A DNA stretch of 64,000 nucleotides from Negaprion brevirostris (GCA_030324005.1 JARDVH010000121.1:10423035-10487034); one strand, 5' to 3'. Counted from the first letter of the stretch, positions 2,482 to 63,494 are shown. Notes: generated from the sequence alone by a model not told the origin. Numbers and translations are program-made.

Positions 2482-2508
2482 ATAAATTACTGCAAGAAAA
2501 AAATATAG
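2482..2508 (+). CDS. 27-nt phase 1-1 micro-exon candidate (D)KLLQEKNI
   Basis: catcattttcag|ATAAATTACTGCAAGAAAAAAATATAG|gtattc; open in phase 1; same size and phase as many others in the window. Confidence 0.55.
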   Translation: MNYCKKKI

Positions 2509-3235
2509 GTATTCCTTTTAAATTAAATTATAAATTAAAAAGTTGTTCTCAAAATTGCTGTTAAAGATGTTGATTCCGATTTAGTCATTTCTTAATGTGT
2601 CTTTGAGACGTGATGTAACCCTAATGGCTGTTGGAAGTGCTGCATTGACCGAGGGGCATTTTTTGCACGACATGATACGTCAATGTTCCATCTTCACACT
2701 GAAAGCGCAAAACAACAAGTTGCAAAAATTTGCGGAAGTTACGGGCACATTGCATCTCTGCTTTTTACGCCCAACTTGTGAAATTTGGCTGAATATTTGC
2801 CGCAACGCAAATGAAAATACACTTTGAAACACTTAATGGCTTTAACATATGCAGCGATAAACTGATTGACACCACGTGTTGGTTCACTTGCGCTTTGCCG
2901 ATTAATATCTATGAACGACATCATGTTTTACCTCGCTTTAGAGTGAAAGAGCTGGACTGCAATTGATTTACCTGCAACTTGACTTTCTATGCGGTTAAGC
3001 ATTAACAACATTGACGTCATGATCGGAATGTGAAATGAAACATAAATAAGATCAGACATATTCCCTTATTATGGCGTCATGGACTTTTTTTTTTGTTTGC
3101 CAATATCCAACACGTTTTTTTTTTATGTTATTACCCAATGGGCGTTTTTTCGACGTGTTTGTAAACTGATATTTTTTCTTTGAAAGCCAATGGCAGAAAC
3201 TAAACTGAAGTCGGGGGTATATTTGCTGATCGCAC

Positions 3236-3405
3236 TAAGAACCAAGAGTAAAGAACAGGAACAGGTCCCGAGGCACTCCAAGCCTGGGCCGGTCATGATG
3301 CCTGCCCAAACGAAAACTCTATGCACTTACGGATTCCGTATCCTTCCACTTCCATCTTTTCCATGTGTTTGTCCAGATGCCTCATAAATCCCGCTATCGT
3401 ATATG
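3236..3405 (-). mobile_element. CR1 LINE 3' end fragment
   Basis: Reverse complement resembles the CR1 3' tail at 24290-24460 (gcatctggacaaacacatg...gatacggaatccgtaa...ggcttggag...gttcttt). Confidence 0.75.
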
Positions 3406-3759
3406 CAGTAGCTATTTAATTAGAATAACACCAATATCACTGCAGAGATTTTGTTTTTGTATAGGCGACAGGCTTTCTTCACCGGAGAGATCATATAACC
3501 GATCTGCGACTTGCTCGCTTCATGCACGAATCCCTGTTGCCCATTCTTCTGAAAAAAAAATCTATACATACTGTGTTGGAACATGTTCACATGAATAACT
3601 CACAAAGGAAAGCAGCAGCAGTAAAATTCCCTGCACTACGTTTGATTCTTCTGGGGATGGGAGGAGAATGCTGCTTTAGAATCAATGTTTACATGTGATT
3701 CGATAATAAGGGGAATAAATATTTCTTTGTCAAAAAAAAGGACTCGTAGATTTCAAGGT

Positions 3760-4130
3760 TACTTCATTACGTTGAGGACGATTGCATGACATTCTGGAGT
3801 CGAAGGGTGAACGATATTGGCGGTGTGGGGGGGGGGGGGTGGATGAGTGCCAAAGACAGAAAAAAAATCGCTATCGAAGAGTTTTGTCAATTGGGACCTC
3901 AATAGTAGTCATTTCAGGATCACTAACAGTTTCATCTGTTACTCAGTGCAAAAATATTAGAATATTTCAAATGAATACGTGGCTGAATTTATGGTGCGAG
4001 GGCGGGACGGGCGGAATGGGCGGGAAGGTGTTTTGGTAAAGGGAGAGGACGTAATTCAGATTCTTAAGGCTTTGGGACAGATTCAGAGGCGGATGGAACA
4101 AATGGAAACCATACCTGAATAGGTCAGGGA
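3760..4130 (+). mobile_element. Possible decayed L1/Tx1 ORF2 C-terminal fragment
   Basis: Broken frames give FWSRRV, WLNLW and WDRFRGGWNKWKPYLN, resembling the fish L1 ORF2 C-terminal F..KW.P.L motif; weak. Confidence 0.25.
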
Positions 4131-6509
4131 CTGACGTCTTAAGTGGTGTGTTTTGCAAAAGCTTGTTGCAGAGGATTTAACGTAAATGGGAGGAGCATTA
4201 GAGAATATGCAAGATTTCGGGCTGGGTGGGGATGCGCAGGGAGGTGATTAAGGATGTGACTCATACACAGAAGGACGAATAAGATAGTCAGAGAAACAAA
4301 GTGCCAGATTTAACTGGGATCCCAGTGGAACATACACTGAACACGAACAGTAATGTTAACATTTTGAGACGAAATTCTTTCTGTCCAAACACACGGGGAA
4401 ATAACAAAAGGCAAATATGAAGTCCGAAAAACAGCATATTAGGAGTTACAAAGAAAGTTTGAATTGATTTGTAATATATTTTTAAATTAATCGTCCAGTT
4501 AAGTGAACAGGTATGATGTGGTGATTTTGACAATTACCTTAAATGTGAAATTAGACATGCATGCGATTAATGCCCGTCTCCAAATATGATTAATTGTAAT
4601 CAGCATATAGATTAGGAAAATGAAATCAGTTAAACGACCGTTGAGGAAGAATTCGTGAAGAATTCCAGCTAGGCAATCTGCAATCACGAAGGAACTATTG
4701 GCAACCTCATTGCTTGACACTGCCCTTGGGGATGAATGTCAATAACATGATTCAATTGTTCTTCGAGCTGGAGAGTTACTTAACTGGCACTGAGACCCGG
4801 GTCCCGAATCTAAACAAAATACTCTATGATGCCATATGGCATGAGCTAGCAATAATAGATCAGCAAACTTAGCTTGAAGGGTTGACGTTTATGGAAAATG
4901 GCAGGCGTTGTAGGAATTCATGGATGAAGTCCAAATATCATTTCTTCGTGTTTGACACAAAAGTCAAATAGGAACGGTGGCCAAACCATGGATTACAGGG
5001 GAAATTGGAAATATTATGAGATCCAAGTGAGAGGCATAGAACTTGGCCAGGTAAAGCAACGGACTTTAAGACTAACAGAAGTTTAGAATTCGGAAAATGA
5101 GAACCCAGGAACTGCTCAAGAAGGGAAAATGGAATATGAGAGGAAGCCCATGGGGAATTGAAAAAGCAAAGACTGAAAATTGATATGCAATTATATGACG
5201 AGAAACAATTACTGAAGTTAAATGTAGGTCCCTTACATTCAGGAATAAGGAGCAACAAAATTCCTGACCATCTGACAACATGCCATCTTGACAAAGTTGG
5301 AAGAAAATGTAAGCACATTTTTTTTTTTAATTACGAGTATACATAGAGGAAGAGCATAACGAAAGTAAATGTTGGCCATTTTGAGGAGGATACTAGTGAA
5401 ATGTTAATGGGAAACACAGAGGCGGCAGCTGTACGAAACCAACATTTTACTTCTATGCCCACGGAAGAAGATATGACAATTTTCCAAAAGCGAGCTATCG
5501 TTAATTTAGAGCAACTTGATGGAATTAGCATCAGTAGTGAGAGGGTATTGAACATACTAACGATATGAAAGGCAGATAAGAATCTTGGAATTTACGACCT
5601 GCACCGGAGAATATTAAAGGAGTTCGCAGCAATGACGATGCAGGCAATGGTTGGGATAGTACAAAATTCCTTGGACACTGGTAAGGTTCCCGTGGAATGG
5701 AACAGACAAATCTAACGCCCCTACTCAAAAAGTGAGTGAGATTAAAAGTAGGTAACTTTAGGGCAGTTAGCTTGAACTTTCTGGCGGGCATGTTGCTGGA
5801 ATCTATCATTAAGGTGGAGGTGAATAAACATTTGGAAAAACAAAAGCACAACCACAATTCCTAAGCATGATTTTATGTAGGGAAAAATCATGCTTGACAA
5901 GAGTTCTTGAGTTATTTGGTGACGTTGCCATCGAGGTGGATAGTGAACTGCCTATGGATGCCATAAAATTGGACGTCCAGAAGGCGTTTGCTGAAGTGCC
6001 ACGTAGAAGACTGATTCAGGAGGTGAGATCGCAGAGAATTGGGGTGAAGTATCAAATTGGATTGAGGATTGGCTAACTGACAAAAATCCGAACATCAGGA
6101 TAAAATGACATTTCCCTGTCTGGTGAAATGTAACAAGCTAATGTGATAAGCGTGAGAATATCATTTTTCGCAGAAAAAAACTAATACAGAGACAAATTAT
6201 TACCTAAATGGTAAGCATATTCAAAATGAGGCACGCAGAGGGATCAGGGTGTCTTTCTCCATGAATCACACGAGTCAGTGTGCACGTGCAGAATTTACTT
6301 TTTAAAGGCAAATAGTACGTTGGCGTTTGCCGCAAAAGGGCTGGAGTATAATGAATTGAGCTGTTGTTGTATTTGTCTAGGGTGTTGCTGAGATCAGATC
6401 CGATGAATTGTGTTCACTTTTGATCTCGTCACTTGAGGAGGGATGTGCTGACATTGGAGAAAGTTCAGAGAAGTTCAACAGAATAGTTCAGGATGAAGGA
6501 ATTAGATCA

Positions 6510-7690
6510 AGGAACAAAGAACAAAAAAAAACACAGGAACAGGTCTTTCCGCCCTCTCAACCTGCGCCGACCATGCTGCCCGACTGTACTAAAAATCCCT
6601 ACCCTTCCGGGGACCATATCTCTCCATTCCCATCCTATTCATGCATTTGTCCAGAAGCCCTTTTGAAGTCACAATCATATCTGCTTCCATTACGCCCCAC
6701 GGTAGCGAGTTCCAGGCACCCGCCAACCTCTGTCGAAAAAAAACAGTGAGAAGTCTCACAACACTAGGCTATAGTCCAACAGGTTTATTTGGTAGCACAA
6801 ACCACAAGCTTTCAGAGCACTGTGAAGGGGCAGTTCTCCGAAAGTTGTGGTTTGTGCTACTGCATAAACTGTTGGACTTTAACCTGGTGTTGTCAGACTT
6901 CTTACTGTGCTTACCCCAGTCCAACACCTACACTGCCACATCAGAAAACTAAAACACATGTCTCATACATCTCTTATAAATCTTATCGTACCAGCAGCAA
7001 TTTAGGGAGTTAGTAGTAAGTTTAAAAAAAACAGGATCTCTCACTACCCAGTCTTTTTACCTGGCACTTTAGCGCCTTAAACCTATGCCCCATAGTAATT
7101 GGCACTTCTACACTGGGAAAAGGCTTCTGGCTAACCATTCTGTCCATGCCATTTATAATCGTGTACACTTCCATCTGGTCACTGTCAATCTCAGTCGTTA
7201 CAGTGAGGCCAATCCAAGTTTCGCCCAATTCTCCTTATAGCTCATACGATTCATACCAGGCAACCTCCTGCTAAATCTTTTCTCTACTCTCTCTAGGCCA
7301 CATCCTTCTGGGAGTGTGGAGGCTAGAATTGTTCACTACATTGCAAGTGTTGCCCAACTACGTTTCTATAAAGCTGCAACACGACTTGCCATTTATAAAA
7401 AAAACTCGAAGTCTTGGCCGTTGAAGGCTTGCATGCCAAAGACCTTCTCAGCAAAGTTCCCACCTTTGTTGCCACTCTCAGTGACCTGAGTCTACACTCA
7501 GATCGACCAGCCTGCCAATACTCTTAAGACTTCTGCCATTTACTCTTTATTAACTCTTCCAAAATGCATAACCTCAAATTTATCAGGATAAAACTCCACC
7601 TGACATTTCTCCGCCCAAGTGTCCAACCGATATACATCTGGCTGTATCCTCTGCCATTCCTCATCACTATCTGCAAGTTCGCTAACCTTG
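6510..7690 (-). mobile_element. CR1 LINE 3' ~1.2 kb inserted antisense into the above CR1
   Basis: ORF 7540..7761 ADSDEEWQRIQPDVYRLDTWAEKCQVEFYPDKFEVMHFGR; 3' tail read as aacaaagaaca at ~6513. Confidence 0.85.
6743..6943. mobile_element. Palindromic Penelope-like element terminal remnant (fold-back)
   Basis: Arms ~6743-6817 and ~6836-6908 are imperfect reverse complements; same family as 37125-37505 and 37915-38050. Confidence 0.75.
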
Positions 7691-7999
7691 AAGAACTTGA
7701 GGTGAAAAAGATCGAAGGATATTGGGGAAGTTGGGAATAAGCTATTGCGTGGGACCATCATCCATGATCATATAGAACTGCGGAGAAGTTTAGAATGGCT
7801 GAAGTTCCTGCATCTGTTCTATGTTCTATATGCCTTTGTCTCAATTTCGGTCTTTGGCGTGCATTGTCCCTGGGCATTGCAGCGTGACTGAGCTAACTCC
7901 AATGGCATCTTGTAAAACGTGTGTTCTGCAGCCTGAATAATAATCTTCTAATTAAGAAAATGATTCTGTCCCTGACTGCAATACATGACTTTTAAATCA

Positions 8000-10200
8000 C
8001 ACAAACACAGGAAATGTTGAAAAATATTCGCAAGTCTGAATACATTTGCAAAGAGAGAATAGAGCCAAAGATTCAGGTCGGCCTGATCTGAGTGGGAGAT
8101 GAATCCAAAGAAATTTGGATAAGATTTGTGTTATAAAAGTGAGGAGAGTGGCACGGGTGGTAACAGTTGACAGGAGTACGGTAGGGTGAGGGAAGAATTG
8201 GCGAATGTTGACTGGGGGAGCGCGTTGGAAGGTAGGTCTGCTGAGGAGCAGTGGAGGATCTTTNNNNNNNNNNNNNNNNNNNNNNNNNNNNNNNNNNNNN
8301 NNNNNNNNNNNNNNNNNNNNNNNNNNNNNNNNNNNNNNNNNNNNNNNNNNNNNNNNNNNNNNNGGGGCAGGCTCGAAGGGCTGGATGGCCTACTCCTGCT
8401 CCTATTTCTTATGTTCTTATGTTCTTATGAATAACGTCGAGAGAAAAAAAGGTCAAGAGAATGCAAATGGTGAGGATAACGATAGAATATTTCTCAGACC
8501 GTCCATTAAATAACGGATGATACAAATGGCAGAACAAATGTGCAAAGTGCAGGGATATATGTGCAAGTGATAGAGAGCTGGAAAACGAAGGCTGTGAAGC
8601 AAGGTGGTAAACTTTAGAAGTGGAAGATCAAAAATAAGAATATAAAGCAATCTAATTTTGGAATGACATGGAAAAGAAGATATCAAGCACAAAAGCGCAC
8701 ACAGCGGTGAAGTGCCTAATCGGAAGCCGTACCACTGTTTGTTCAGTTTACCTTAGACTTCAAAGCAACTTTGCAAAATGCCAAGGATAGACATCTGGGC
8801 AGGAGAGTACCGTGCGTTGTTGACATATCAAGCAACAGGAAGGCCTCCATCCTGCTTGTGAATGGAGCAATGTGTACTGCAAAGCGATCATTCACTGTCG
8901 GTTTAGCTTCATTGATGTAGGAGCAGCGAATGCAATAGACCAGATTAAAAGATGCACGCGCGAAGTGCAGCTTCACGGCAAAATACTTTTCGGGCCCTGG
9001 GATTGTGAGCAGGGAGGAGATGAAAATGTATGTGATGCATTTATAACAATAGAATGACAAGGTGTTAGTGGTGGAGGGTAAAATGTTGGGTGAGATGGGG
9101 GAAGGCGCCCTGACATCTCAGAGGAACTAGAGCCAACAGAGAATGGACAAGTTGGGTGAGGAGATAAGAGGAACATATGTTGTGTGGTATCCTCATGTTC
9201 GAATTCCCGGAAATTACGGAGAATGATCACTTGAACTTGGATGGAGAAAAGCATGGAGAATACAGACTATTTATGTTTCTAGGAGGGAGGGGAACAGTGT
9301 GAGCAGCAAATCGGGTGATGGATCGCTCACGGCTGAGAACTCTGACAAATATAGTGGGTGAAGAAACATGATTTTGGAATAATAAGTTAATGCCACCAAC
9401 ATTTTTTTTTAATGTTCAATCATCAGGTCAGATATGACAGAAGCAAATGAAGTGAGAAAATGAGATGAATTCTTACACCATGTAACGTGTGAGCAGCTGT
9501 AGACAGATGAAGTGTTGGAGTCTCTGAGCTTTCTGGTCTCCAGAGAACAAGAATGTGAATGTTTCACAGTGGTACAAAAATGGTTTAACGGAATGTTGCC
9601 TGCTCTGGAGGATATTAGCTCTGAGGAGAGATTGGATAATTTGGTCTGTTCTTACTGGAATGACCTAGGTTGAGGGGTGACCTGACAGATAATTACAAAG
9701 ATTATGAGCTGCATGAACAAAGTTGATAGTCAGATGTTTTTTTTTCTTGGATAGAAGAGTCAAGTACGAGGAGACATAGGATTAAGTTGTGTGGGGGAAA
9801 CTTTAGAGGAGATGGGAAAGGCAAAGTTTTTGATACAAATGTGGTGAATGTCTGAAACGATCTGCTCGAGGTGGTGGAACAGGTGCAATACCGTCATTTC
9901 AGGAGCAGCTAAATAAAAAAATAATGATTGGTTGGGGATGGAGGGATGGAGACTCGGTAAGAGCATGCAGTTTTAGTATAGGCAGATATCGCGATCTGCA
10001 TGGCCTTGGAAGGCCGAGGCGTCTGACCCTGTGCTGTGCTTTTTTTTCGTCATGGATGCTGGTGTGCAGTCCATTACTAGAAGTAGAGACGCAAAGGTCT
10101 AGGGAAGGAACTAAAGATTCAGTGATGAAACATCTGACGGTGATATTGCGTGGCAACCTTTTTGAAACTTATTCAGAAGAGCAGATGATGTAAAGACGCC
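8000..10200 (-). mobile_element. Decayed Penelope-like retroelement (RT C-terminus + GIY-YIG endonuclease), interrupted by CR1 pieces at ~8170-8430 and ~9570-10045
   Basis: ORF 8743..9060 TIPGPEKYFAVKLHFARASFNLVYCIRCSYINEAKPTVNDRFAVH resembles GIY-YIG (NLVYCIRC..YIGET...DRFAEH). ORF 8973..9254 IILRNFREFEHEDTTQHMF. ORF 9899..10156 SLVPSLDLCVS resembles the RT LPFLD motif. Confidence 0.8.
9570..10045 (+). mobile_element. CR1 LINE 3' fragment
   Basis: ggaatgttgcctg...gaggagagattggata...aggttgaggggtgacctgac...gtggtgaatgtctg matches other CR1 3' ends in the window. Confidence 0.8.
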
Positions 10201-10674
10201 ATAGATGTAAATGGATATCTCAAAATTGGAGCAGGACTATGCAAAGGATGAGCATCCTAATTTGTTGTGATTATCCTGAAGATTCCCTAACCCCCGATGA
10301 AAAGGCGATCTTTCATGATTAACTACCTCCAAACACGATTTGAACCAACACAAGAATCATGGGATCAGCATTTTGCTTTCATTGTTAGTGGACTTCAGTC
10401 TCTTTGAGCTGGTGGATTTGCCCTCCAAGGAATACGCTTGATGGAAAAATGGTGAAAGCCATTCAACATATTTTCATGCTTAGTTTATTGTTTTTGTAAC
10501 CCTCGCCAATACAACATCAGCAAGCCATCCAGCTAACCCCACTAACCAACGCTAAATGTGGTTATTTTAGATTGTGAATGGTTTCCATGAGGAGTACTAC
10601 AAGGAAAATAACATCTCATTTGCTATGCAAATGTATGGATAAATTGTGTCATTTGTTCAATTTTTCTGAGTATG

Positions 10675-10711
<37 letters not shown>

Positions 10712-10818
10712 GTAGATNNNNNNNNNNNNNNNNNNNNNNNNNNNNNNNNNNNNNNNNNNNNNNNNNNNNNNNNNNNNNNNNNNNNNNNNNNNNNNNNNNN
10801 NNNNNNNNNNNNNNNNNG

Positions 10819-10884
<66 letters not shown>

Positions 10885-10885
10885 C
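10675..10885 (+). repeat. (GATA)n microsatellite spanning an assembly gap
   Basis: Direct reading; source of the LSIY/YLSI/IYLS ORFs. Confidence 0.97.
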
Positions 10886-11675
10886 CGACCACAAGTCAAG
10901 TGCAGGAAATTTCAAAGAATGGCATGTTTACGCCTAAAAGAAAGATCCTGGCTAAAGTCAAATATGGTTTTATTCAGTATTTTCCAAATACTAAGGACTA
11001 AACCATATTTTTCGAACTAAATTTACGAATTGATTTACACAACACAACCTGGTGTCCCCAAAACCCAATGCGAGGTTGGAGATGCTGGAAATTTTTATTT
11101 TTAGTTTCAGATAATTGGCGATGTCTTCATGAACTTCACATTTTCCACGAGCATTTAAACAGGCAATACGTAACTCAAATGTAATCTGAAAGAGGATGGG
11201 GCTCTAATACATGTCATCTATTACATAGTCCATTTTTGAAAACACTACCTATCGCTTCCAAAAATGCAGCGATAATTGCAACACCAAAACAATGTGTCAC
11301 AAGGCAAAGCTTTAAAATAGTTGACAGATGAATGCAAGTCATCATGCTACTTTATTAAAAGCTGCTGTAGTAACAACCAGTTCGGGAAATACATCTTCCA
11401 AGCTTACCTGGGCTGGCCTACGTTTCACTCCAAACTGACACCAATGCTTTTAACTCTTCGATGCCCTGCCAGTTGACTAATCAATCTTGCCAGCGGCAGT
11501 CATGTCACATGAAANNNNNNNNNNNNNNNNNNNNNNNNNNNNNNNNNNNNNNNNNNGAAATAATACAACAACTAAAAACAACTTTCAATACAGGAATAGG
11601 TTAACATGGCAAAAATGTCACGAGGAGAACCTCAGGTTCTGTTCCAATTCAGTTACAAAACATCTTGACCAACAG

Positions 11676-11702
11676 AGACTAGTACCGTGCAGGCGGAGAT
11701 AT
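11676..11702 (+). CDS. 27-nt phase 1-1 micro-exon candidate (E)TSTVQAEI
   Basis: cttgaccaacag|AGACTAGTACCGTGCAGGCGGAGATAT|gtatgt. Confidence 0.5.
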
Positions 11703-12103
11703 GTATGTGATTAATTAGCACAGCATGAAGGATTGTTTTCAGCTACAGACAAGAATGGAATTGGTCTATCCTGCAATCAATAAGAGAGGAAATTACAAGA
11801 GAACTCCTATCCAAATGTACCGTCAGGTCCGTGAGCATATTGAGCGGCACGAGCGTTATGTGTTTGTAGGCAAATGCATTTAGGAATGCCGAGTGAGCTG
11901 ACCTCTTTGAACTTTTATTGGGAATCACCAACACAATACTTACTAGTGTTAATTGCAATATATACATTGCCGTCAACAAATGCCTTGCCCATCGACGCAG
12001 GTAGGCAATCTGTCATTAAATCCTGTTGGTTGATTAGTTACAAAGTATGAACTAGCAACAAATTAAACACTTATTCGAGCCAGGTTCCAACCACCCCATT
12101 CAG

Positions 12104-12130
12104 AAATTCGCACGAATTGCCTCAATGTAG
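12104..12130 (+). CDS. 27-nt micro-exon candidate (E)IRTNCLNV with GC donor (non-canonical or mutated)
   Basis: ccccattcag|AAATTCGCACGAATTGCCTCAATGTAG|gcaaca; peptide resembles exon 47897-47923 (ELRSHFLTV). Confidence 0.4.
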   Translation, partial: KFARIASM

Positions 12131-13172
12131 GCAACAATCTGGCTACTCACGACCCCCTGAGAACCTTGAAGGAATGCAGTGATTACAATGCAAATACGTG
12201 ACACTCACTCACCAGGATGCCAGTTGCTGGCAGGCAGTCCATCTTTCGCATGTCCCATGCAGTCTGACCACACTTCAGGAATTGAATCCATGATGGTCAG
12301 AAGAGCTGAGTTGCAGCCCAAAGATGAAAATGCTTGCCTCTGAAAGTACAGATATGTTTTATATCTTCTGGTATTAAGAAAGTTTTGTAAGTTTTAGGGC
12401 AATGACAACTGTGCACATTATCCAACAAGCCAAGTGCATGCATGGTGTAAAGTAAAATTATTGATGGTAACCAAGCATATTGATTGGCCTCAGGACTTGG
12501 TATCATTCCAGTAATGATGGCCTATCTACAAGAACAGCAGAAGTGATGATGCTTACAGTTAACTAAAGGCTGTTCCATCCCAAGGCCGAAAGAGAATCAA
12601 TCCCTGACAGCACATAAAGAAAGTTTTGGCAAAGTTAAAACTCAGACTAATGCATGACACGTGACATGTAGATGAAACTCAGTATCATTGGCTCTGACAA
12701 GTGGGAATGGTGCCACCATGTCCGTCAATATCAGCAGCATCATCAGCACGATCATTAATGTCCTAATCGACCTCATGTGACTTTGCAAGCAGTTGCTGAT
12801 ACAATTTAAGTACAGCTGTATTGAGCAAAAAAAAAACAACGCACTCAGTGATTGATACGCTTCTTTCATCACTTGGCTCCATCCCCAGTTTTTCTCTGGC
12901 GCTTTTTGACTTGATTCAGTACACAACAAGAATCTGAGGATCATAACCATCATCATAGAACGAAAATGTTATGTGGCAGTTTTACCGAATCGCAGCAGTT
13001 TAACAAACATAAAACTATATGGGTCAGAAATTGCGAATTCAGTTGCCGCTGAGAGAACAGACGCGTCAACGATACCCTGGCACAATCATATTTGATTGGT
13101 GGTTCCTGCCCTGGACGTGTAATTTGATGGGAAATATACAGATGTATTTAGTTACATTTATTTGTATTTCAG

Positions 13173-13208
13173 AACTGGACAATTTGAGACAAGCTCTGCA
13201 ACAAACAG
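13173..13208 (+). CDS. 36-nt phase 1-1 micro-exon candidate (E)LDNLRQALQQT
   Basis: tttatttgtatttcag|AACTGGAC...CAAACAG|gtgtgc; amphipathic; same class as 45772 and 51755. Confidence 0.6.
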
Positions 13209-14019
13209 GTGTGCCATCTTACTTCAATAATAACTTTCCACGTCTCTTGGGTGTTATTGACTCTACTCAGTCATAGCAGGTATGGTGCCGTAACTTATTG
13301 TTGCGTATATTTGTCGGTGATGGGAGGTTGACAATGGGAATGGCCGACTATTTGGCAGTTTTTTGTTAATGTTAGCAAATTTTCATCATACCAGCGGCGA
13401 TTCAATGCTTAAAAAGGACTCACGTTTGTTTCAAACCCGTTGTGGCTCATAATGGACATCTGAATTTGAATTTGCAGTTTGTCATATACCTCATGACTGC
13501 AATATTCCGAATAAGCCAACCTTCACAAGGAAAAATAAGATTCCCGTAACAGAGCGACTTAAAACACTAGCGTCGGGAGCTCAATGATCAGTTGAATTTA
13601 TCGCGCTGACCGCATGGATACTAAATTACCGTTCTGCATTATTGAAAGGAAAGTAGCAGCTGCATAAAACTGTTATTTTTTCTCTCCATTTCTCCTTGCA
13701 TTTATTTAAGGTAATTCTGCAGCTTGAAGACAATGAAACGAATCCTTCAATGTTGGCTTTATATATAGATGTTTCTATTTTGTTCTATTTCCCATAAATT
13801 GTATCATTGATGCCGAAGGCTTTCGATAATCGCGACACATTATTTGGACTATCAAGATTTCTAATCCCACTAAGGAATGTTCAAAGAATTACGTGTCTTA
13901 CTATCGGTTTGTAAATTTTTAGTCGTTTTTTTTTGTCCATGGACGTATTATTCCACGATAGCACCATAACTTTGCAGGCCGCATGTTCTGTTCACTGTAC
14001 CAATAGTTTATTTTCACAG

Positions 14020-14046
14020 AGCAAAAACTGCGCCAGTGTCAGCAAG
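14020..14046 (+). CDS. 27-nt phase 1-1 micro-exon candidate (E)QKLRQCQQ
   Basis: tttattttcacag|AGCAAAAACTGCGCCAGTGTCAGCAAG|gtaaac. Confidence 0.65.
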
Positions 14047-14159
14047 GTAAACGAGGGCAATGGACTTTATCTTCTTATCTTCTATTCGCATAATTGAATA
14101 CTTAACATCGTTACTTCTTGCTGTGACAATTAAAACAACTTTATTAAACATATCTGCAG

Positions 14160-14186
14160 AATTTGATCAGAAATGTAAAGGTTTCG
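14160..14186 (+). CDS. 27-nt phase 1-1 micro-exon candidate (E)FDQKCKGF
   Basis: catatctgcag|AATTTGATCAGAAATGTAAAGGTTTCG|gtgagt (consensus donor). Confidence 0.65.
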
Positions 14187-53374: not shown

Positions 53375-53695
53375 ATGTGGATTAACTGGGGGAATGGGGG
53401 TAGACAGGGACAGGGAGTGAGAGTAAAATAGGGAATGTGGATTAACTGGGGCAATGGGGGGCAGACAGGGACAGGGAGTGAGGGTGAAATAGGGAATGTG
53501 GATTAACTGGGGGAATGGGGGTAGACAGGGACAGGGAGTGAGAGTAAAATAGGGAATGTGGATTAACTGGGGCAATGGGGGGCAGACAGGGACAGGGAGT
53601 GAGGGTGAAATAGGGAATGTGGATTAACTGGGGGAATGGGGGTAGACAGGGACAGGGAGTGAGAGTAAAATAGGGAATGTGGATTAACTGGGGGA
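53375..53695 (+). repeat. G-rich minisatellite, alternating 60/61-bp units, running into a gap
   Basis: atgtggattaactgggg(g/c)aatggggg(t/gc)agacagggacagggagtgag(a/g)gt(a/g)aaataggga repeated about 5 times. Confidence 0.95.
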
Positions 53696-54004
53696 GAATG
53701 TTAGATTTTCATAGTTTAAAGTTTGAATTAACCTGGAACAGAATGGGGAGTAAAACACATTTATATTCAATATAGTTTTATAATAACACACACCAAGATA
53801 ACTCAATTGGATTCAGATTTATAAATAGGGATTAAAACACATTTCATAATATTCACCGACATTTATTCCGATATTGGTAGCATTATTTATATTTACGTAT
53901 CATGATAACACAATTAGATTTATATTGTATACAGAGTAAAACATGTCATAATATTTATCTTTATACACTGATTTCTATACATGTAAGAAAACAGATATTC
54001 ATAT

Positions 54005-54555
54005 GCAAATTCGGAGCAGACATAGGCCACCCTCGAGACAGCTTTGCAATTCAATAAGATTGTGGCTGATCTGATTGTTACCTCGTCCCCACGTTCCCGC
54101 TGACCTCTGATAACCTTTCAGCCCCAGTTCTAGATTCTCCCACAGGAGGAAACATCCTCTCTACACCCACTCTGTCGAGACCCCCTCAGGATCTGAAAGG
54201 TTTGGATCGAGTCGCCTCTTACTCTTCTAAACTCCAGTGAATACAAGCCCAGCCTCTCCCAACCTTTCCTCATCAGACAACCCGCCCATTCCTGGGGTTA
54301 GTCTGGTAAACCCTCTCTGAACTGTTATGACACCTTTACTTAAGTAAGGAGACCAACATTGTCCACAGTACTCCAGGTGTGGGGTCACAACATTCCATAC
54401 AGCTGAGGCATCACCTCCCTGCCTCTTTAATGAATTCCCCTCACAATAAACAATAACACCCTATCAGTTTTCTGAATTACTTGCTGTAACCGCACACCAG
54501 TCTTTTGTGATTCATGCACTAGGACTCCCAGATCCCTCTGCACCTCAGAGCTCCA
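54005..54555 (-). mobile_element. CR1 3' fragment (antisense)
   Basis: ggagcagacataggcc...caataagattgtggctgatctg; gtactccaggtgtggggtcac (VxPHLEY antisense). Confidence 0.85.
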
Positions 54556-54559
54556 GATG

Positions 54560-55975
54560 TTAGGGAACTTGGGGAAATGAATAGTGATGTCTTGAAGAGT
54601 GCACGTATAATGGAGAAGGAGGTGCTCGAAGTCTTAAAAGTGCCTCAGGGTAGACAAATGCCCGGGACCCGATGAAGTGTACCCCAGGATGTTGTGGGAG
54701 ACTTGGGAGGATATTGCGGGTCCCCTTAGCAGAAATATTTGGATCATCAACACCACAGATGAGATGCCTGAAGATTGGAGGGTGGCAAATGTTGTGCCTT
54801 TGTTTAAGAGGGGCTGCAGGGAAAAGCCTAGGAACTACAGGCCAGTGAACCTCATCTGTAAGTGGGTAAGTTGTTAGAAGGTATTTTGAGAGACAGGATC
54901 GACAGACATTTAGAGACACAAGGACTGATTAGGGACAGTCAGCGTGGCTTTGTGAGCGGAAAATAACGTCTCACAAATTTAATTGAGTTTTTTGAAGGGG
55001 TAACCAAGAAGGTAGGTGAGGGCAGTGCAGTTCATGTTGTTTACATGGATTTTAGCAAGGTGTTTTACAAGGTACCACATGGTAGCTTGTTGCATAAGGT
55101 TAAATCTCACGGGATCCAGGGTCAGGTATCTAAATGGATACAAAATTGGCAATTGGGCCAGTGGGCTGACGAATGGCAGATGGAGTTTAATTTAGATAAA
55201 TGTGAGGTGATGCATTTTGGGAGACTGGACCAGGGCAGGACTTACTCAGTTAATGGTAGGGCACTGGGGAGAGCTACAGAACAAAGAGATCGAGGGGTAC
55301 ATGTTCATAGTTCCTTGAAAGTGGAGTCACAGGTGGACAGAGTGGTGAAGAAGGTATTCGGCATGCTTGGTTTCATTGGTCAGAACATTGAATACAGGAG
55401 TTGGGACGTCTTGTTGAAGTTCTACAAGACATTGGTAAAGCCAAACTTGGAATACTGTGTACAGTTCTGGTCACCCTATTATACAAAGGATTTTGTTAAA
55501 CAAAAGAGCGCAGAAAAAATATTACTAGGGTGCTACTGAGAATTGATGGTTTGAGAAATGACGAGATAGTCTGGGACATTTTTCTCGGGAGCATAGGAGG
55601 TTGAGAGGTGATTTCATAGAAGCCTACAAAATAATGAGGGACATACATCAGCTAGATAATCAATGCCATTCACCCAAAGGTAAGGGAATCTGGGAGTAGA
55701 CGGAATAGATTTAAAATGAGATGTGAGAGATACAAAAGGGCCCAGAGGAACATTTTTTCTTCACGCAGAGGGTGGTGATTGTCTGCCAAATTTAGTAGTA
55801 GAGGCAGGTGCAATTTTGACTTTCAAAAAGCGCTCAGACAGCTACATGGGTAAGATGGCTTAAGAGGGGTATGAAACAAACGGGGGCAATTAGGACAAGC
55901 TTCGTGACTAAAAAAAAGCGGCATGCACAAGTTGGCCCAAAGTCCTATTTCCATGCTGTAACCATCTATGACTCA
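54560..55975 (+). mobile_element. CR1 RT to 3' tail with an internal deletion of the RT core
   Basis: ORFs 54677..54877 (PEDWRVANVVPLFKRG...NYRPV) and 55045..55539 (MDFSKVFYKVPHG...WIQNW/QLGQWADEWQMEFNLDKCEVMHFG). Confidence 0.92.
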
Positions 55976-56870
55976 AACCGATTGCATGCACCCCCGCCAA
56001 TGAAGTTGGAGTCAATCATACCCAACTACAGATTTCCTCAGGGCAGTCACGCCACTTGGCGGAATCTGGTTGCTCGCCGAGAACATGAATACACTCACAG
56101 ATGCATTGAAATGTTATTTTTTGCAACTCAACTATCCTGCAAGGAGAAACACTCAAACACCTAGCAAACAGTCCCTTTTGCGACGATAATCGACTGACCC
56201 AGGAATCCATCCAATTATTTCACCTTCATCAATTATTCATCAAATTTCAGCCACATCGCTCATACCATCCATCTACTAAACTCACGCACTTATTTGGCAA
56301 ACCAAACAAACAACACAGCAGATTCTCCAGCCACATACGGACCGAAACAAATACACATCTACCGGTGATCATGACCATTCATCCAGTCATCAGTCTGCTA
56401 GTCCACTCGCTCAACCATTCACCCAGTCAAGCATTTACCCATGCATTTAATAATACTCACAACCACACAAATTCTTCAGACGTCTGCATCTTGAAATAAA
56501 TTCCCGAATCCGAAAGCAAAAAAAATGCATGTAAACGCTCTTTTCAACGGCTCTTCTCAGCTTGATGGAGTTTTCCAGAAGCGCAGCATTTCACAGTTTT
56601 TTTTTTATTATTCAGTTAGAATGGAGACACCTCTGAAGTAATAGTCACAGATTTCGTGTCCAGAGTTTTATTGAGCCACGATATTGTCACTGACTGAATG
56701 ATTAAACCGACGATCGCGGGTGGGGGAAAGACAGGGGGAGAGGTGTAGGAAGATGATGGAGGCGAGCCAGGTTTAGAATGTTAGAAAAGGAAGAGATTGA
56801 TTCCATGCAACGTTTAATTTAGTGTGCTTTGCTATTCAAATAACAATGTCTTGTTCTTGTCACTATTTAG

Positions 56871-56897
56871 AAGATAAGCTGGACATGGTAGACAAAG
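56871..56897 (+). CDS. 27-nt phase 1-1 micro-exon candidate (E)DKLDMVDK
   Basis: ttgttcttgtcactatttag|AAGATAAGCTGGACATGGTAGACAAAG|gtaaag; acceptor resembles that of exon 25198. Confidence 0.68.
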
Positions 56898-57115
56898 GTA
56901 AAGCGAACAGCTGCAAATATTCTTTCCATTTTTTATTTGTCTGAACTGTATCCTTGGATACAATAAATATTGCGGGTCATTCGGAACTAATTGTAAATTT
57001 AAAATAAGTTGACTATTATCCAAAATTGACATCCATCGACTTTCTGTAACATAATTACAAATTGTCTAAAGTTAGTGGTGGGAAAAGTTACAGGAAGTAA
57101 CTTTGAGTGACAGAG

Positions 57116-57360
57116 TGGGCAGTGTAGTGGTTAGCACTGCTGTTTCACAGCGCAGGGACCCGGCTTGGATCACTGTCTGTGTGGTGCGTGCCCGTTCTAC
57201 CCGTGTGTGCGCGGGTTTCCTCTGTCTCCTCCGGTTTTCGCCCACATTCAGGAAGGTGTGCAGGTTGTGTGTATTGACCCACACAGGCGCCGGTCTGAGG
57301 CGACGACGGGAATTTCACAGTAACTTCATTGCAGCCTTACTTGTGACTAATAAATGCATT
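57116..57360 (+). mobile_element. tRNA-derived SINE
   Basis: gggcagtgtagtggttagcactgctgtttcacagcgcagggacccgg...cacagtaacttcattgcag...cttgtgactaataaa. Confidence 0.85.
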
Positions 57361-57869
57361 TAAAAAAAGCAGAATGCATCGGCAATTTTGGGAACAAAGA
57401 CTAGTGATGACTATCAATATAGATCTGATAAGGGATGGTCGCATTTCTGAACCAAAAGTATATTTTTTAGAATATAAAATATATTCTATATTTAAAATGC
57501 ATTTGACGCTGAAACACGTCATTGAATCCAACTGTCAGTATTTGATCACAGATGATGTTTTAACTTCCTTGATAGTACAATCCTGATCTGTGTCCACAGT
57601 ATTAGAACAGTTTATTACTCAATAATGCCTCTGTTGCAAATACTCGAAGAATGCGCGTGAACGCAACATCTACTATGAAGTGAAACGTGGAAGAACGTCC
57701 CCAATGATAAACAGGCGTTTGGCTATCCAGGAGAGGCGGCAAAGAGGCTTCACTGGTACATTCAGGGAAAGGTGGGCCCAGAAACATCGACGAAGAAATG
57801 GGAAGCGGATGATTTCCTCTCAAGGACCGGTCCAGTAAGACTCAGGGAAAGAGCAGGCAGAGTGTATCG

Positions 57870-58205
57870 TAGAATCATAGATAACATACACGGCGGAAAA
57901 AGGTCATTTGGCCCATCAATCTGCACCGAGCACAGTCCCACCCAGGTCTTACCCCCTTAACCCTACATATTTACCCACTAATCCTTCTAACCTAAGCATC
58001 TCAAGACAAAAAGGGGCACTTTTAGCATGGCCAATCAACCTTAACCTAACTGTGGGAGGAGACAGGAGCACACAAATGATACCCACGCAAACACGAGGAG
58101 AATTTGCAAACTCCACACAGACAGTGACCCAAGCCAGGAATCGAACCCAGGTCCCTGGAGATGTGAAGCAACAGTGCTAACCACTATGCTACTGTGCCAC
58201 CCATG
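57870..58205 (-). mobile_element. HE1-type SINE (antisense)
   Basis: tttagcatggccaatcaacct...caaactccacacagacagtgacccaagccaggaatcgaaccc...gctaaccact. Confidence 0.85.
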
Positions 58206-58720
58206 TGTGCTGCTCTGGTCACCTCACTGTAGGAAGAATGTGATTGCACATGAAAGGGTATAGAGGATGAAATATTTGAGCTATAAAGACAAACTCAGTA
58301 GGCTTGGATTGTTTTCTTTTGGGCAGAGAAGGCTGAGGGGGGACATGACTGAGGTGTATAAGATTATGAGGGGTATAGACAGGGTAAATAGGAAGCAACC
58401 AACTGTTCCCCTTGGTTGAAAGGTAAATCATGAGGGAGCATAGCTTTAAGGTAAGGGGCAGGAGAATCAGACAGGATTTGAGAAAATAAAATTTTCACTC
58501 AGAGGGTGGTGCAAATCTGGAACGCACTAACTGGGAAGACAGTGGATGTTAGAAACCTTACAACCTTGAAAAGGTATTTGGATGAGCGCTTGAAATATCA
58601 CAACATTTAAGGATATGGGGCTACTGCTGGAAATCAGATTAACGTGACTTTTGTGGTAGTTACTATTGAGGCAGACTTGATGGGCCAAAGATCCTTTTCT
58701 GCACTGTACAACTCTAAAAA
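58206..58720 (+). mobile_element. CR1 3' fragment
   Basis: gaaggctgagggggg acatgactgaggtgtataagattatgagggg...actcagagggtgg...ctgtacaactcta. Confidence 0.85.
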
Positions 58721-59291
58721 TCTATCAATACTATCTGGGATAATAGACTTTACATTATCGTCATGTGATTCAAGGCCCAAAGTCCAAACAAAGCCTTCAG
58801 TTCAAGGGCAATTGGAGATGTTGGCCTTGCGAGTGACACCCATATCCAATTAAGGGGGAAAAAAAATCATTCATTGGGTTCTTCTCAATTTATAATGGTA
58901 GTTGAAAATATTGACAGAAATACCAGAATTTTCACATCCTACCCACCATGCGAATCATAGCAGGCAGAAGTAGGTGCCCCCATGCAAAGGTCAGTTGACT
59001 TCGGGCATAATTTTCCAGTCTTGGGGCAAGCACGGCTGGAAAATTCCACCCAATATCTTTGATGGGGGGCCACCAAACCAAGCAGTTGTGTTCTCTGCAT
59101 TCCTTTATTTCACTTTGATTCGACCTGTTGTCCCTTGAGTTTGGATATTCAGAAGCTTTTTCCCAGGGTGGAAGAGTCAATTAATAAGGGGCATAGATTT
59201 AAGGTGTGAGGGGCAATGTTTAAAGNNNNNNNNNNNNNNNNNNNNNNNNNNNNNNNNNNNNNNNNNNNNNNNNNNNNNNNNNNNNNNNNNN

Positions 59292-61710
59292 GTGCTGGGA
59301 GATTTTAATATATTGACTGGGACTCACTTAGTGCTAGGGTGTGGATGGGGCAGAGTTTGTAAGGAGCATCTAGGGGGGCTTCTTGAAACAAATATGTAGA
59401 TAGTCCAAATAGGGAAGGGGCCATACTGGACCTGGTATTGGGAATGAGCCCATCCAGGTGGTCGATGTTTCAGTAGGGGAGCAGTGACCACAATTCAGTA
59501 AGCTTTAAGGTACTGATGGATAAGGATAAGTGTATTCCTCAAGTTGAGGTACTAAACTGGAACAAGGCTAATTACAACAATATTAGGCAGGAACTGAGGA
59601 CTGTAGATTGGGGGCAGATGTTTGAGGGCAAATCCACATCTGGCATGTGGGAGACTTTCAAGTGTACGTTGATAGGGCTTCAGGACTGGCACATTCCTGT
59701 AAGCATGAAGGATAAGTATGACAAGTTTTGGGAATCTTGGATAATGAGAGATGTTGTGAGCCTCGTCAAAGAGAAAAAGGGAAGCATTTGTCAAAGCTAG
59801 GAGGCTGGGAACACATGAAGCAAGTGTGGAATACAAGGGAAGTAGAAAGAAACTTAAGGAATAAGGAGGACTAAAAGAGGGTTGCGAAGAAGCATTGGCC
59901 AGTATGATTAAGGAAAATCCAAAGGCTCTTTATAAATATATAAAGAGCAAGAAGGTTGCCAGGGATATGGTTGGCCCATTCAAGCACAAGGGAGGGAATT
60001 TATGCATGGAGCCAGAGTAAATGGGTGAGGTCTTAAATGAGTACTTTGCATCAGTGTTCACAAAGAGAAGGACTTGGTGTATGATGAGTCTGGGAAAGGA
60101 TGTGTAGATAGTTTGAATCATGTTGAGATCAAAGACGAGAAGATGTTGGGGGTCTTGAGAAACATTAAGGTAGAGAAATCCCCAGGGCCTGATGGAATAT
60201 ACCCCAGAGTACTGAGAGAGGCAAGGGAGAAAATTGCTGGGGCCTTGAGTGAAATCTTTGTATCCTCACTGGCTGCAGGGGAGGTCCCAGATGATTGGGG
60301 AATAGCCAATGTTGTCCCTTTGTTTAAGAGTAGCAAGGATAATCCAGGTAATTATAGGCCAGTGAGCCCTACATCAGTGATAGGGAAATTATTGGAGTGG
60401 ATTCTTTGAGACAGGATTTACTCCCACCTGGAAATAAGTGGATGTATTAGTGAGAGGCAACATAGTTTTGTGAAGGGGAGGTCGTGTCTAATGAATTTGA
60501 TTGAGTTTTTCAAAGAAACGATGAAGATGATTGATGAGGGTAGGGCAGTGGATGTTATCTACATGGCCTTCAGTAAGACCTTTGATAAGGTCCCTCATGA
60601 CAGACTGGTGCAGAAGGTGAAGTCGCATGGGATCAGAGGTGAGCTGGCAATGTGGATACAAAACTGGCTCAGTCAAAGAAGACAAAGTAGCAGTGGAAGG
60701 GTGCATTTCTGAATGGAGGGCTATGACAAGTGGTGTTCCTCAGGGATCAGTGCTGGGACCTTTTCTGTTTGTACTATATATAAATGATTTGGAGGAAAAT
60801 GTAACTGGATTGATTCGTATGTCTGCAGACGACACAGAAGTTGGTGGATTTGCGGATAGTGATAAGGACCATCAGAGGATAGAGCAGAGTGTAGATTGAT
60901 TGGAGACTTGGCCTGAGAAATGGCAGATCGAGTTTAATCTGGACAAATGTGATGCAATGCATTTTGGAATGTCTAATACAGGTACGAAATATACAGTAAA
61001 TGGCAGAACCCTTAAGACTGATGATAGGCAGAGAGTTTTGGATTTACAGACACAAGGTCACTGAAAGTGGCAACGCAGGCGAAGAAGGTAGTGAGGAACC
61101 CATACGGCATGCATTCCTTCATCGCTGGGGCATTGAGTTTCAAAATTGGCAAGTCATTTTGCAGATTAATAGCTTCTTATTGAGGCCGCACTTGGAATAT
61201 AGTGTTCAGTTCTGGCCGCCATACTGTATGAAGAGTGTGGAGGCTTTGGGGAGGGTGGAGAAAAGATTTACCAGGATGTTTCCTGGAATGAGGGGAGCTT
61301 AGAGAAACTTGATTTGTTCTCACTGGAACGACGGAGGTTGAGGGACAACCTCATAGAAGACTACAAGGTTATGAAGGGCATGGACAGACTGGATTTCCAG
61401 GGTAGATGAGCCAATTACTCGGGGGCGTAGATGCGAGGGGCAAGTTTTAAAGGACATGTACCAGGCAAGTTTATTTCACACAGAAGGTGATGGGTGCGTG
61501 GAACCCGCTGCCGGGGGAGATAGAGGAAGCAGATACGATAGTGATTTTTAGGGTGTCTTGACAAATACTTAAATGAGATGAGAATGGCAGGATATGGTCC
61601 ACGGTAGGGTAGAAGATTTTAGTTTACTCGCTCAGCATGGACGGTACAGGCTTGGAGGGCCTAATGGCCTGTTCCAGTGCTGAATTTTCCTTGTTCTTTG
61701 TTTTTTGTAA
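59292..61710 (+). mobile_element. Best-preserved CR1 LINE ORF2 (endonuclease end, RT, 3' UTR), frameshifted
   Basis: GDFN/DW; KSPGPDGIYPRVLRE; NYRPVS; SCLMNLIEFF; AFSKTFDKVPH; [11 protein letters not shown]; ADDT; RPHLEYSVQFW; tail ttgttctttg. Confidence 0.95.
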
Positions 61711-61943
61711 CGGTTTCTAAATAAAGCACAGATTTAAGACAGACATGCTTCCTCAGTTTCAACATTAGGGAATGGGTGGACTTTTTTTTCCGATTCAATT
61801 CTTGAAGTACACCCACTCAGGTACAGATTTTTTATTATTATTACCTTTAACAAATGTGAACAAATGATTGTTCAACATGATTGAAAATACACAGGTTTAC
61901 ATTACCTCAATGTTGCCTGCCGCACAGTCTGTTTTAACCCTTA

Positions 61944-62756
61944 TGCGGTGGACAAGTAACTAAGAGTAGACGTCTTGTAAGTACAAACAATATTTATTTA
62001 AACCCGCACAATCGATGATCACCCACCCGACCAACAATAAGCTATCTTACAGGAAAATACTAAAGTTCAAGTCCAATACGAGACCTTGACATAACTTTGC
62101 CTGACTGGCAAGTACCTAAGCAGCTATTGGCCTTTATCTGTGCACTGGTCTCGGTAGTCGTCTGTATAGTCTGGTCCTTTGGGCTGGTCTGTCATTCTGG
62201 CTCTGGTCTGCTTCCTTCCTTCTCGGGTGTGGTGGGTCTCCTCTTGCTGGCGATGGTCACCACTGTTGTACCTTGTTCGTGGGGCCCGAGAGAAAGAGAG
62301 ATTCCTGGTTGTGCGGCACCCTTTATATCCCGTTTTGTTTCACGCCCCTTTTTGGCCATTGACAATCAATTGATCAGGACTTGATCACTCTGATCGATAA
62401 GAGTCAAATCAGGTGCTACCACACCGATCTTTGGGTGTGTCCCCAACGGCCATGTCTGTAGGTGTTGGAAGCACATGGGCCACATACCTCCCTCCTAAAT
62501 AAGGGTTCACGGTGCCCTTATGTCTGGTACACAGCCCAGTGAGACCAGAAAGCCACTTTCGTCCTGGAGTTGAAACAAACCAGTGTGACTAAAAAGTCCC
62601 TTTCATCCTGGAGATGACCCATATTGAGTTTATTCACTTGTCAGGTTTGCAGCCTGTTTGTCTCTGTCTTTAAACTTAGGCCTGTCGGTTTAGTTTCTTG
62701 CCCAATTGTCCCAGAGTGCTTTACAAAACGCCATTTTAGATGGCCTGTTGGCCACA
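61944..62756 (-). mobile_element. Probable solo LTR
   Basis: TG...CA bounded ~810-bp block. Minus strand shows TATA-like gatataaag (~62321-62329) upstream of AATAAA (~61993-61998). No clear target-site duplication. Confidence 0.45.
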
Positions 62757-62954
62757 TCACTGTACGGTATCAGAAGTGAGAAGAACTTTATTAGTTGTGC
62801 TCACCAGTATTAAATCAACAACTGCCATTTACTTGTTCCAATTTCAATAAACCTCTATTTGGTACATTGTTAGGTTACGAAAGAAACAACATCGTTAAAC
62901 ATTTTTGCTCCCTTTTGTTGCATGCCAATGCTGACGCTCCCACTTGTCTTACAG

Positions 62955-62978
62955 GCGAAGCCCCGACCAGCGTAACAG
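62955..62978 (+). CDS. 24-nt phase 1-1 micro-exon candidate (G)EAPTSVT
   Basis: cacttgtcttacag|GCGAAGCCCCGACCAGCGTAACAG|gtaata. Confidence 0.6.
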
Positions 62979-63470
62979 GTAATACTGCGGTTCAGCATTA
63001 CTTATCTGCACTTGTAACAACTAACCATTCTGCGTTTAATAAAACGGTTCCCCTTGTGTCCTTGTTGAGTATCGCAGGGAAAAAGTACACATTTCGAAAT
63101 GTGTTAGCTTGCAGTCGTTGAGAGAGTTCATAAAAATGCACTTATCAGGAGAAAAAAACAATTTATATTTTATCGAAGGAAGTGGTCATAGGCTAGAATT
63201 CGGATTGCAATTGGCAGAAAATAATATATTTGTTGAGCCTGACTAACTGTTAACTGTCCAATATTTGCAAAGTCCTATTCCGTGATGATGAGTTAGTGTT
63301 TGACAAATACTACTGAAGTACTAACCGTTACGAACACGGTAAATAATTCTGGAGACCAGAGCGGAGTTGTGAATAACTTTTCTGGAAATTAAAGCAACGA
63401 GTATTGCATCAGAAATCCCCATCAAATTGGAATAAACGTAAATGTGAGTGGAAATGTTTGCGCTTTTCAG

Positions 63471-63494
63471 GCATTCTGAGCACGGCTACAGATG
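63471..63494 (+). CDS. 24-nt phase 1-1 micro-exon candidate (G)ILSTATD
   Basis: tttgcgcttttcag|GCATTCTGAGCACGGCTACAGATG|gtattt. Confidence 0.55.

Follow-up and report, generated by a model that had tools for sequence, protein, structure and literature searches.

A micro-exon array in Negaprion brevirostris and the predicted gene for a long coiled-coil rod with a terminal B30.2 domain

The BG proteins of the chicken are described as combining an IgV domain with a transmembrane helix and as lacking a B30.2 (PRY-SPRY) domain (PMC8813856), and their tails as being encoded by 13–36 exons of 21 (sometimes 24) nucleotides (nt), each with a split first codon, within a tandem gene cluster and subject to alternative splicing (PMC4046983, PMC5938342). 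In the former account, butyrophilins consist of IgV and IgC domains, a transmembrane helix, a few heptads, and a B30.2 domain, the TRIM proteins being distinguished by a RING and a B-box (PMC8813856); and butyrophilins are reported from the cartilaginous fish as well (PMC12841164). Here we analyze a stretch of 64,000 nt from the shark Negaprion brevirostris (contig C121, JARDVH010000121.1, 10423035–10487034; hereafter the window), in which a preliminary description had recognized 21 micro-exon-like cassettes and had proposed that they formed a long, modular, and freely skippable segment of an elasmobranch gene, possibly similar to the BG genes and butyrophilins but with a nine-residue unit.

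With a probability of about 0.6, we propose that the strong cassettes of the window are coding micro-exons of a gene of ~540 kb, in which ~110 phase-1 cassettes would specify a predicted coiled-coil rod followed by a B30.2 domain at +528.7 kb (signed positions being counted from the window's first base); the window itself would then constitute the front, irregular part of that gene. The region read comprised 1,714,000 contiguous bases around the window (228,265 of which, or 13%, are N), plus samples elsewhere in the genome.

All 21 cassettes were found at the positions previously assigned to them, each of the claimed length, free of stops in phase 1, and enclosed by AG and GT (at 12104, by AG and GC). 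That bare combination of AG, GT, and an open phase carries no information by itself; stretches of AG-27-GT open in phase 1 occur 140 times on the plus strand of the window and 113 times on the minus strand. With a splice model trained solely on cassettes outside the window, eight cassettes of 27 nt and three of 36 nt reached a score of at least 6 on the plus strand and none did so on the minus, while 100 local Markov resamples of the window gave a mean of 0.19 and a maximum of 2 scoring cassettes versus the 11 observed; the enrichment over the opposite strand and over randomized sequence is thus evident once the splice signals are scored. Generic splice matrices—untrained, and with approximate values—applied to the window plus 200 kb on either side (464 kb) gave 48 phase-1-open cassettes of 27 nt and 35 of 36 nt on the plus strand versus 7 and 3, respectively, on the minus, with no comparable plus-strand excess at other lengths. 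When the individual cassettes were graded by the number of chance matches expected per length per window (strong being <0.15), 13 came out as strong and 3 as moderate, and the remaining 5 did not rise above the chance level. Among the moderate ones, those at 32583 and 62955 scored well on the generic matrices only, and that at 47897 was middling on both the generic and the trained. Two of the chance-level cassettes, at 11676 and 32028, are probably not members, because their last base, T, produces a stop upon joining to an exon that starts with AA, AG, or GA, as do 90 of the 109 modelled exons. Cassettes of 40 and 31 nt on the plus strand we read as apparent +4 alternative donors of the 36- and 27-nt exons. 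The flanks of the cassettes, which the earlier description had placed in islands poor in transposable elements, are repeat-poor by a crude 15-mer proxy, at 0.002 versus 0.029 at random places (P = 0.004; 2000 draws). Two contig sets that match the window cover its introns evenly and so yielded no junctions; one of them agrees with it almost letter for letter and may be its source. In the other, a relative ~95% alike, none of the 12 insertions or deletions listed (at least 13 in all) falls inside the two exons covered, a weak indication in that those exons amount to 63 of the 5,551 bases. The introns of the window also contain a CTTC microsatellite and a 60-nt tandem array at 45018–45292 and 53375–53695.

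The proposal of a long modular micro-exon segment in a cartilaginous-fish gene gained support from the extent of the array, which continues well past the window: ~250 phase-1 cassettes are present on the plus strand from −1,014 to +524 kb (~1.5 Mb). The section that bears the window has 109 modelled cassettes, coding for ~1,120 amino acids, and the same span on the minus strand has 6 matches. The preliminary description had pointed to the flanks as the place to look for a PRY-SPRY exon, and one is indeed present downstream, at +528.7 kb: a terminal, phase-1, intact exon of 172 amino acids that scores 57.6 bits for SPRY (cut-off 26.3) and 12.8 bits for PRY, the latter below the cut-off of 27.5. 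Its residues 2–160 found the B30.2 domain of butyrophilin 3A1 as the best match in the PDB (E 1.5e-24), with pyrin and TRIM21 next. Since a second B30.2 exon of the same family, split by a gap of 10 N, is located at −62 kb, the plus-strand array comprises at least two genes. The upstream gene, from −1,014 to −62 kb (C121 ~9.41–10.36 Mb), has 142 modelled cassettes for ~1,460 amino acids besides that B30.2 exon of its own, as opposed to 4 minus-strand matches; 8 of the 142 cassettes are of 21 nt, including a block of these at −913 to −897 kb. In that gene, 22 of the 62 36-nt exons also have a Cys at a core position.

The nine-residue unit, for its part, was not supported. The unit of the array is a 36-nt exon plus a 27-nt exon, or 12 + 9 = 21 residues, which length equals three heptads; only the section around the window is rich in 27-nt exons, and that irregular section with its 27-nt runs explains the unit deduced earlier. 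Within the 36-nt peptides of the window's gene the hydrophobic fraction is 0.96, 0.80, and 0.93 at positions 2, 5, and 9 and 0.37 at position 12, and within the 27-nt peptides 0.69 at position 4; when the two are placed in series, the hydrophobic positions 2, 5, 9, 12, and 16 of 21 are the a/d places of three heptads, and the hydrophobic autocorrelation peaks at lags of 7, 14, and 21. The interval between 36-nt exons is 21 residues in 24 of 45 instances and 12 residues in 11, these latter probably marking missed 27-nt exons. Among cassettes with strong splice sites, phase 1 is open in 68 of 68 of the 27-nt class and in 84 of 84 of the 36-nt class, as compared with 33 and 12 for phase 0, a bias that is partly circular, the model having been trained on phase-1-open cassettes. 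As 104 of the 109 modelled exons end in G, the codons at their junctions specify E, D, G, A, or V, and none of them is a stop; and since the exons are in addition multiples of three, any one of them could be dropped with neither a frameshift nor a stop. The cassettes are therefore freely skippable with respect to the reading frame but not to the heptad register, since neither 9 nor 12 is a multiple of 7.

How such an array grows can be seen in the upstream gene, where, in a comparison of 260 exons, 18 exon pairs share their flanking intron at 71–91% identity; there the growth is by tandem copying of blocks of exon plus intron. The window exons share no flanks with one another, which indicates that these exons are old, and yet their splice sites and open frames have been kept. 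This last circumstance bears on the supposition that the cassettes are only chance matches or the relics of a dead gene, for which might be adduced the five chance-level cassettes and the ~140 raw matches per length that chance provides; we regard that supposition as very improbable in view of the biases of strand, length, and phase, the intact SPRY exon, the heptad pattern, and the match of paralogous cassettes to annotated orthologues described below. Other traces of copying were recorded as well: at −91,757 and −91,154, on the minus strand, are inverted copies of the cassettes at −90,162 and −90,782, and at −115,419 and −114,098 a near-identical direct pair, these being either local duplications or assembly artefacts. 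A run of 21-, 24-, and 27-nt cassettes with many Pro, Gly, and aromatic residues, moreover, extends from +63 to +91 kb; in two pairs of these cassettes the acceptors are nearly identical, and the run is possibly a hinge.

A profile of five of the family's own B30.2 domains, compared with 1.84 billion proteins, returned 75 matches at E ≤ 1e-30. The best named single-domain matches (10 of 150 looked up) are from catshark, skate, electric ray, basking shark, and chimaera and bear such names as TRIM39-like, TRIM58, zinc-binding protein A33-like, and nuclear-pore anchor-like. The RefSeq models XP_038668997.1, XP_038672306.1, XP_055510696.1, XP_069775384.1, XP_078422387.1, XP_042191566.1, and XP_042192744.1, the last of which is named nuclear-pore anchor-like (all of these or their isoforms), fall within the same B30.2 group and, like the array, have a coiled coil built in blocks of 9 and 12 residues, but are mostly of 175–460 residues, and thus far shorter, and have generic names. 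In a tree of 42 rows, 14 family domains lie on one side of a branch with 100/100 support and 9 Ig-bearing plus 19 RING-bearing or other domains on the opposite side; the sample was small, chosen by the family's own profile, and included 28 of the other matches listed, neither the gap-split domain nor multi-SPRY fusions being among the rows. The B30.2 of the family, as judged from these sequences, groups with proteins of shark, skate, ray, and chimaera and is separate from the sampled domains of TRIMs and butyrophilins, the tree being unrooted. In the paralog that contig C84 carries, four cassettes in succession (24, 27, 27, and 48 nt) correspond to abutting blocks of the catshark protein XP_038672306.1, which in all was matched by 7 of 19 candidates from that paralog and by 0 of 12 from the opposite strand; by contrast, none of 11 cassettes of the gene at 6.23 Mb matched the skate protein. 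Single blocks of 9 residues distinguish RefSeq isoforms in the catshark, the electric ray, and the chimaera, with a difference of 6 residues in one further pair; between two models of the chimaera there are 13 differing blocks, 10 of which are of 9, 12, or 18 residues. In the chimaera protein XP_042192744.1, two rod parts are separated by 11 Pro/Thr/Gly repeats of 8 residues, and B30.2 follows the second; these repeats resemble the run of 24-nt cassettes that extends from +63 to +82 kb, which likeness supports a single gene. Word-index searches of proteins gave 3 frog TRIM fusions among 334 candidates, 1 of 758, and 2 of 7,999; and in the literature searched, subscription journals and supplements being outside that search, no description of this family was found.

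Several considerations weigh against the proposed gene. Both the splicing at this locus and the joining of the window to +528.7 kb are inferred, as likely, from the sequence, and the span of the gene includes 50,584 N. The section of the window is irregular, with 1 of 4 intervals equal to 21 residues versus 23 of 40 downstream, and perhaps does not form a clean coiled coil. Its peptides match the chimaera protein only weakly, and none of the proteins searched with a profile of the 21-residue unit was a significant match (best E 0.05). The RefSeq models of the relatives are automatic predictions, yet independent of our cassette scan, and the evidence for exon skipping comes from those database models and not from RNA of this locus. 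No convincing first exon was found for the section; the best candidates are a strong donor at −30.9 kb, preceded by a basic open frame, and some weaker ones. Finally, a candidate exon with a signal-like peptide at +93.5 kb is followed by a cassette-poor gap of 22 kb, and may be the start of a separate gene, the window cassettes then belonging to another unit.

The version of this last objection that we consider tentative and rather unlikely holds that the +93.5-kb exon is the signal-peptide-coding first exon of a secreted rod–B30.2 gene extending from +93.5 to +529 kb, with the window cassettes forming a separate upstream coiled-coil gene, or an alternative 5' part, from about −8 to +91 kb and with no B30.2 exon of its own. 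Within the 1.7 Mb, an ATG plus a signal-like peptide occurs at only 2 of the 103 strong plus-strand donors and at 0 of the 75 on the minus strand, namely at +93.5 and −1,005.6 kb; and the latter (−1,005,685 to −1,005,624), in which an ATG and 20 mostly hydrophobic residues run to a strong donor immediately preceded by a pyrimidine tract and an AG, is situated at the very beginning of the upstream array, and could be either a recursive splice site or the signal-peptide first exon of that array. Short hydrophobic stretches open the models of skate and chimaera as well, and these facts, together with the gap and the parallel with the upstream array, speak for two genes. The +93.5-kb exon nevertheless has the look of an internal one—a good acceptor, 93 nt (a multiple of three), and phase 1 open from the first base—and no terminal exon or SPRY remnant was recognized from −61 to +140 kb. 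Three relatives with multiple isoforms start with no strongly hydrophobic stretch, and since acceptor pyrimidine tracts translate into hydrophobic residues, such stretches and the N-termini in databases can be artefacts, several of which we saw. Searches for paralogs of the exon returned only itself. Furthermore, the 36-nt peptides of the window section (five exons only) resemble those of the downstream section (mean 1.03) more than those of the upstream gene (0.59). On account of that resemblance, of the acceptor and open frame of the +93.5-kb exon, and of the lack of a recognizable gene end before it, we favour one gene over two by about two to one.

Whether the 5' end encodes the domains of a known family was approached with our own profiles of IgV, IgC, RING, B-box, and the TRIM coiled coil, which found nothing among 51,902 open reading frames (best E 0.085 for RING and 0.29 for B-box) in a region that offers no positive control; neither did motif or profile reveal an Ig exon in the 1.7 Mb, 13% of which is N. 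None of the 20 matches to the butyrophilin IgC (PF22705) in the genome is near the cluster, and no Ig, RING, or B-box is present in the 6 relatives scanned, one of them 1,697 residues long. A transmembrane exon was not found either, although gaps could hide one; in the sole hydrophobic exon of medium size, at +93.5 kb, the hydropathy over 19 residues reaches 1.13 at best and the core measures 11 residues, which stretch is too short for a membrane helix. The possibility that the locus encodes a true membrane protein of the butyrophilin or BG type (Ig, transmembrane helix, giant heptad tail, and B30.2), or a TRIM with RING and B-box, whose 5' exons are in assembly gaps might draw on the butyrophilin 3A1 match of the head, on the 21/24-nt heptad exons in the BG tails (PMC4046983) and the 21-nt block of the upstream gene, and on the N bases, which include 6,929 of the 53 kb before the first cassette; that possibility is nonetheless improbable, given the domain searches above and the need for such exons to be hidden in all three arrays examined. 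Of the earlier comparison to BG and butyrophilins there accordingly remains the design of the tail, along with a B30.2 domain; the identity is not supported, as Ig and transmembrane exons were not found and the B30.2 forms, in the unrooted tree, a group of its own. The lack of a detected Ig, RING, or B-box suggests a soluble protein of rod plus head, cytosolic or secreted.

Most likely, the chains would pair through the a/d stripe to form a rod of at least 1,100 residues. The rise of a coiled coil is ~0.15 nm per residue, so that a rod on the order of 150–200 nm might be expected. Such a rod would hold the B30.2 heads together at one end and, in the manner of a tether or a spacer, may allow them to bind a protein ligand avidly. 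Upon the loss of a 36 + 27 pair the rod would become three heptads shorter with the register clean, and the loss of a single exon would bring about a shift of register, a kink, or a hinge, 12 residues being equivalent to a 2-residue insertion and 9 to a 5-residue insertion. In trimeric coiled coils, a 2-residue insertion breaks the helix into short beta-strands (PMC4786415). Exon skipping would likely tune the length of the rod.

The gene has company. A third array, on the minus strand, starts at −1,023 kb and was sampled leftwards as far as its own B30.2 exon, at C121:8,849,711 (8.85 Mb); its position is head to head with the upstream gene. Among the 121 B30.2 matches in the genome, the closest are at 6.23, 8.31, 8.81, and 8.85 Mb of C121 and at 93.46 Mb of C84, the family B30.2 exons thus numbering six within 4.7 Mb of C121 plus that one elsewhere, and each of the paralogous exons has such cassettes on its 5' side (10–20 kb sampled). 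Between 6.4 and 8.0 Mb of C121, five of six 10-kb samples had no cassette, and there is accordingly no evident sign that the two far paralogs take up the whole of it. On C84, ~85–101 Mb is dense in ordinary B30.2 exons and contains 7 of the 20 butyrophilin-type IgC matches, the micro-exon family member being located within. Downstream of the window's gene, on the minus strand, best matches to the Na/K-ATPase alpha-3 (ATP1A3) and the kainate receptor GRIK5 are found at +704 and +824 kb; neighbouring exons we take to be POU2F2-like and tectonic-like, and ATP1A3-GRIK5-POU2F2 is the order at human 19q13.2. An open frame of 385 codons at +552 to +554 kb, preceded by an exon that we assume to be Myb/SANT-like, is presumably an accessory gene of a transposon. 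Table 1 collects the features of the window and its gene.

Table 1. Cassettes and related features; positions are counted from the first base of the window, and those with a sign lie outside the window.
Feature	Position	Strand
27-nt phase-1 micro-exon candidate; strong but borderline, weak donor	2482..2508	+
27-nt cassette; chance-level, T-ending, probably not an exon	11676..11702	+
27-nt cassette with GC donor; chance-level	12104..12130	+
36-nt micro-exon; strong	13173..13208	+
27-nt micro-exon; strong	14020..14046	+
27-nt micro-exon; strong	14160..14186	+
27-nt micro-exon; strong	25198..25224	+
30-nt cassette; chance-level	27120..27149	+
33-nt micro-exon; strong	27251..27283	+
27-nt micro-exon; strong	28717..28743	+
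27-nt micro-exon; strong	30021..30047	+
27-nt cassette; chance-level, T-ending, probably not an exon	32028..32054	+
27-nt micro-exon candidate; moderate	32583..32609	+
36-nt micro-exon; strong	45772..45807	+
27-nt micro-exon candidate; moderate	47897..47923	+
27-nt micro-exon; strong	48547..48573	+
27-nt micro-exon; strong	48984..49010	+
36-nt micro-exon; strongest of the window	51755..51790	+
27-nt micro-exon; strong	56871..56897	+
24-nt Pro/Thr-containing micro-exon candidate; moderate, opens the 21/24-nt Pro/Gly run to +82 kb	62955..62978	+
24-nt cassette; chance-level	63471..63494	+
Entire window, inside the array	1..64000	+
Three strong cassettes upstream of the window	−8,314, −5,312, −5,182	+
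93-nt signal-peptide-like exon candidate	+93,500 to +93,592	+
Regular array, 91 modelled cassettes	+115,837 to ~+524 kb	+
Terminal PRY-SPRY (B30.2) exon	+528,744 to +529,264	+

Compared with the systems considered at the outset, the array shares with the chicken BG genes a long coiled coil in tiny exons with split codons and a tandem cluster, the tail in BG being alternatively spliced; small phase-1 exons coding for heptads, a trait of BG and butyrophilins, are thus found here, but the array alternates 27 and 36 nt—21-nt exons being a minority—to give three heptads, with ~110–140 exons per gene over 0.5–1 Mb, and has the B30.2 that BG is described as lacking, whereas the Ig and transmembrane parts were not found. 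With a butyrophilin such as BTN3A1 the gene has in common heptads followed by a C-terminal B30.2, but the IgC matches of this genome are elsewhere and the family's B30.2 groups apart. From the TRIMs with a PRY-SPRY (TRIM21, TRIM39, pyrin) comes the parallel of an oligomerizing coiled coil that presents B30.2 heads, predicted for the present protein; yet no RING or B-box was found here, and the micro-exon-built rod would be several times the length of the 142-position coiled-coil family of the TRIMs. The guinea-pig enterophilins have a long heptad run and then a B30.2, are not known to have a RING, a B-box, or an Ig, and are far shorter. Theirs would be the nearest architecture, to be taken as a lead; an interaction of enterophilin-1 with SNX1 is reported (PMC13749957, PMC9205943). 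The array therefore works like a BG or butyrophilin tail but is not to be filed under BG, butyrophilin, or TRIM, as the Ig, transmembrane, and RING/B-box parts were not encountered.

What this locus would mean depends on how far the proposal is carried. At its widest, and as a speculation that we hold to be doubtful, there may exist in the cartilaginous fish an ancient cluster of genes of 0.5–1 Mb with 100–150 micro-exons each, encoding secreted rods of 150–200 nm with a family-specific B30.2 head, whose lengths and hinges would be set by combinatorial skipping of 27- and 36-nt exons, as a system of extracellular recognition or structure. Closer to the data, the family would be largely missed by annotation blind to short exons, its relatives in sharks, rays, and chimaera being mostly short database models. 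The array is a predicted coiled coil in tiny exons after the style of BG, at a several-fold exon count and with a different unit of 12 + 9 residues, in which the skipping of a single exon would alter both register and length; it provides a testable case for the growth of micro-exon arrays by tandem copying of exon and intron, and bears on the place of B30.2-tipped rods between the butyrophilins, BG, and the TRIMs.

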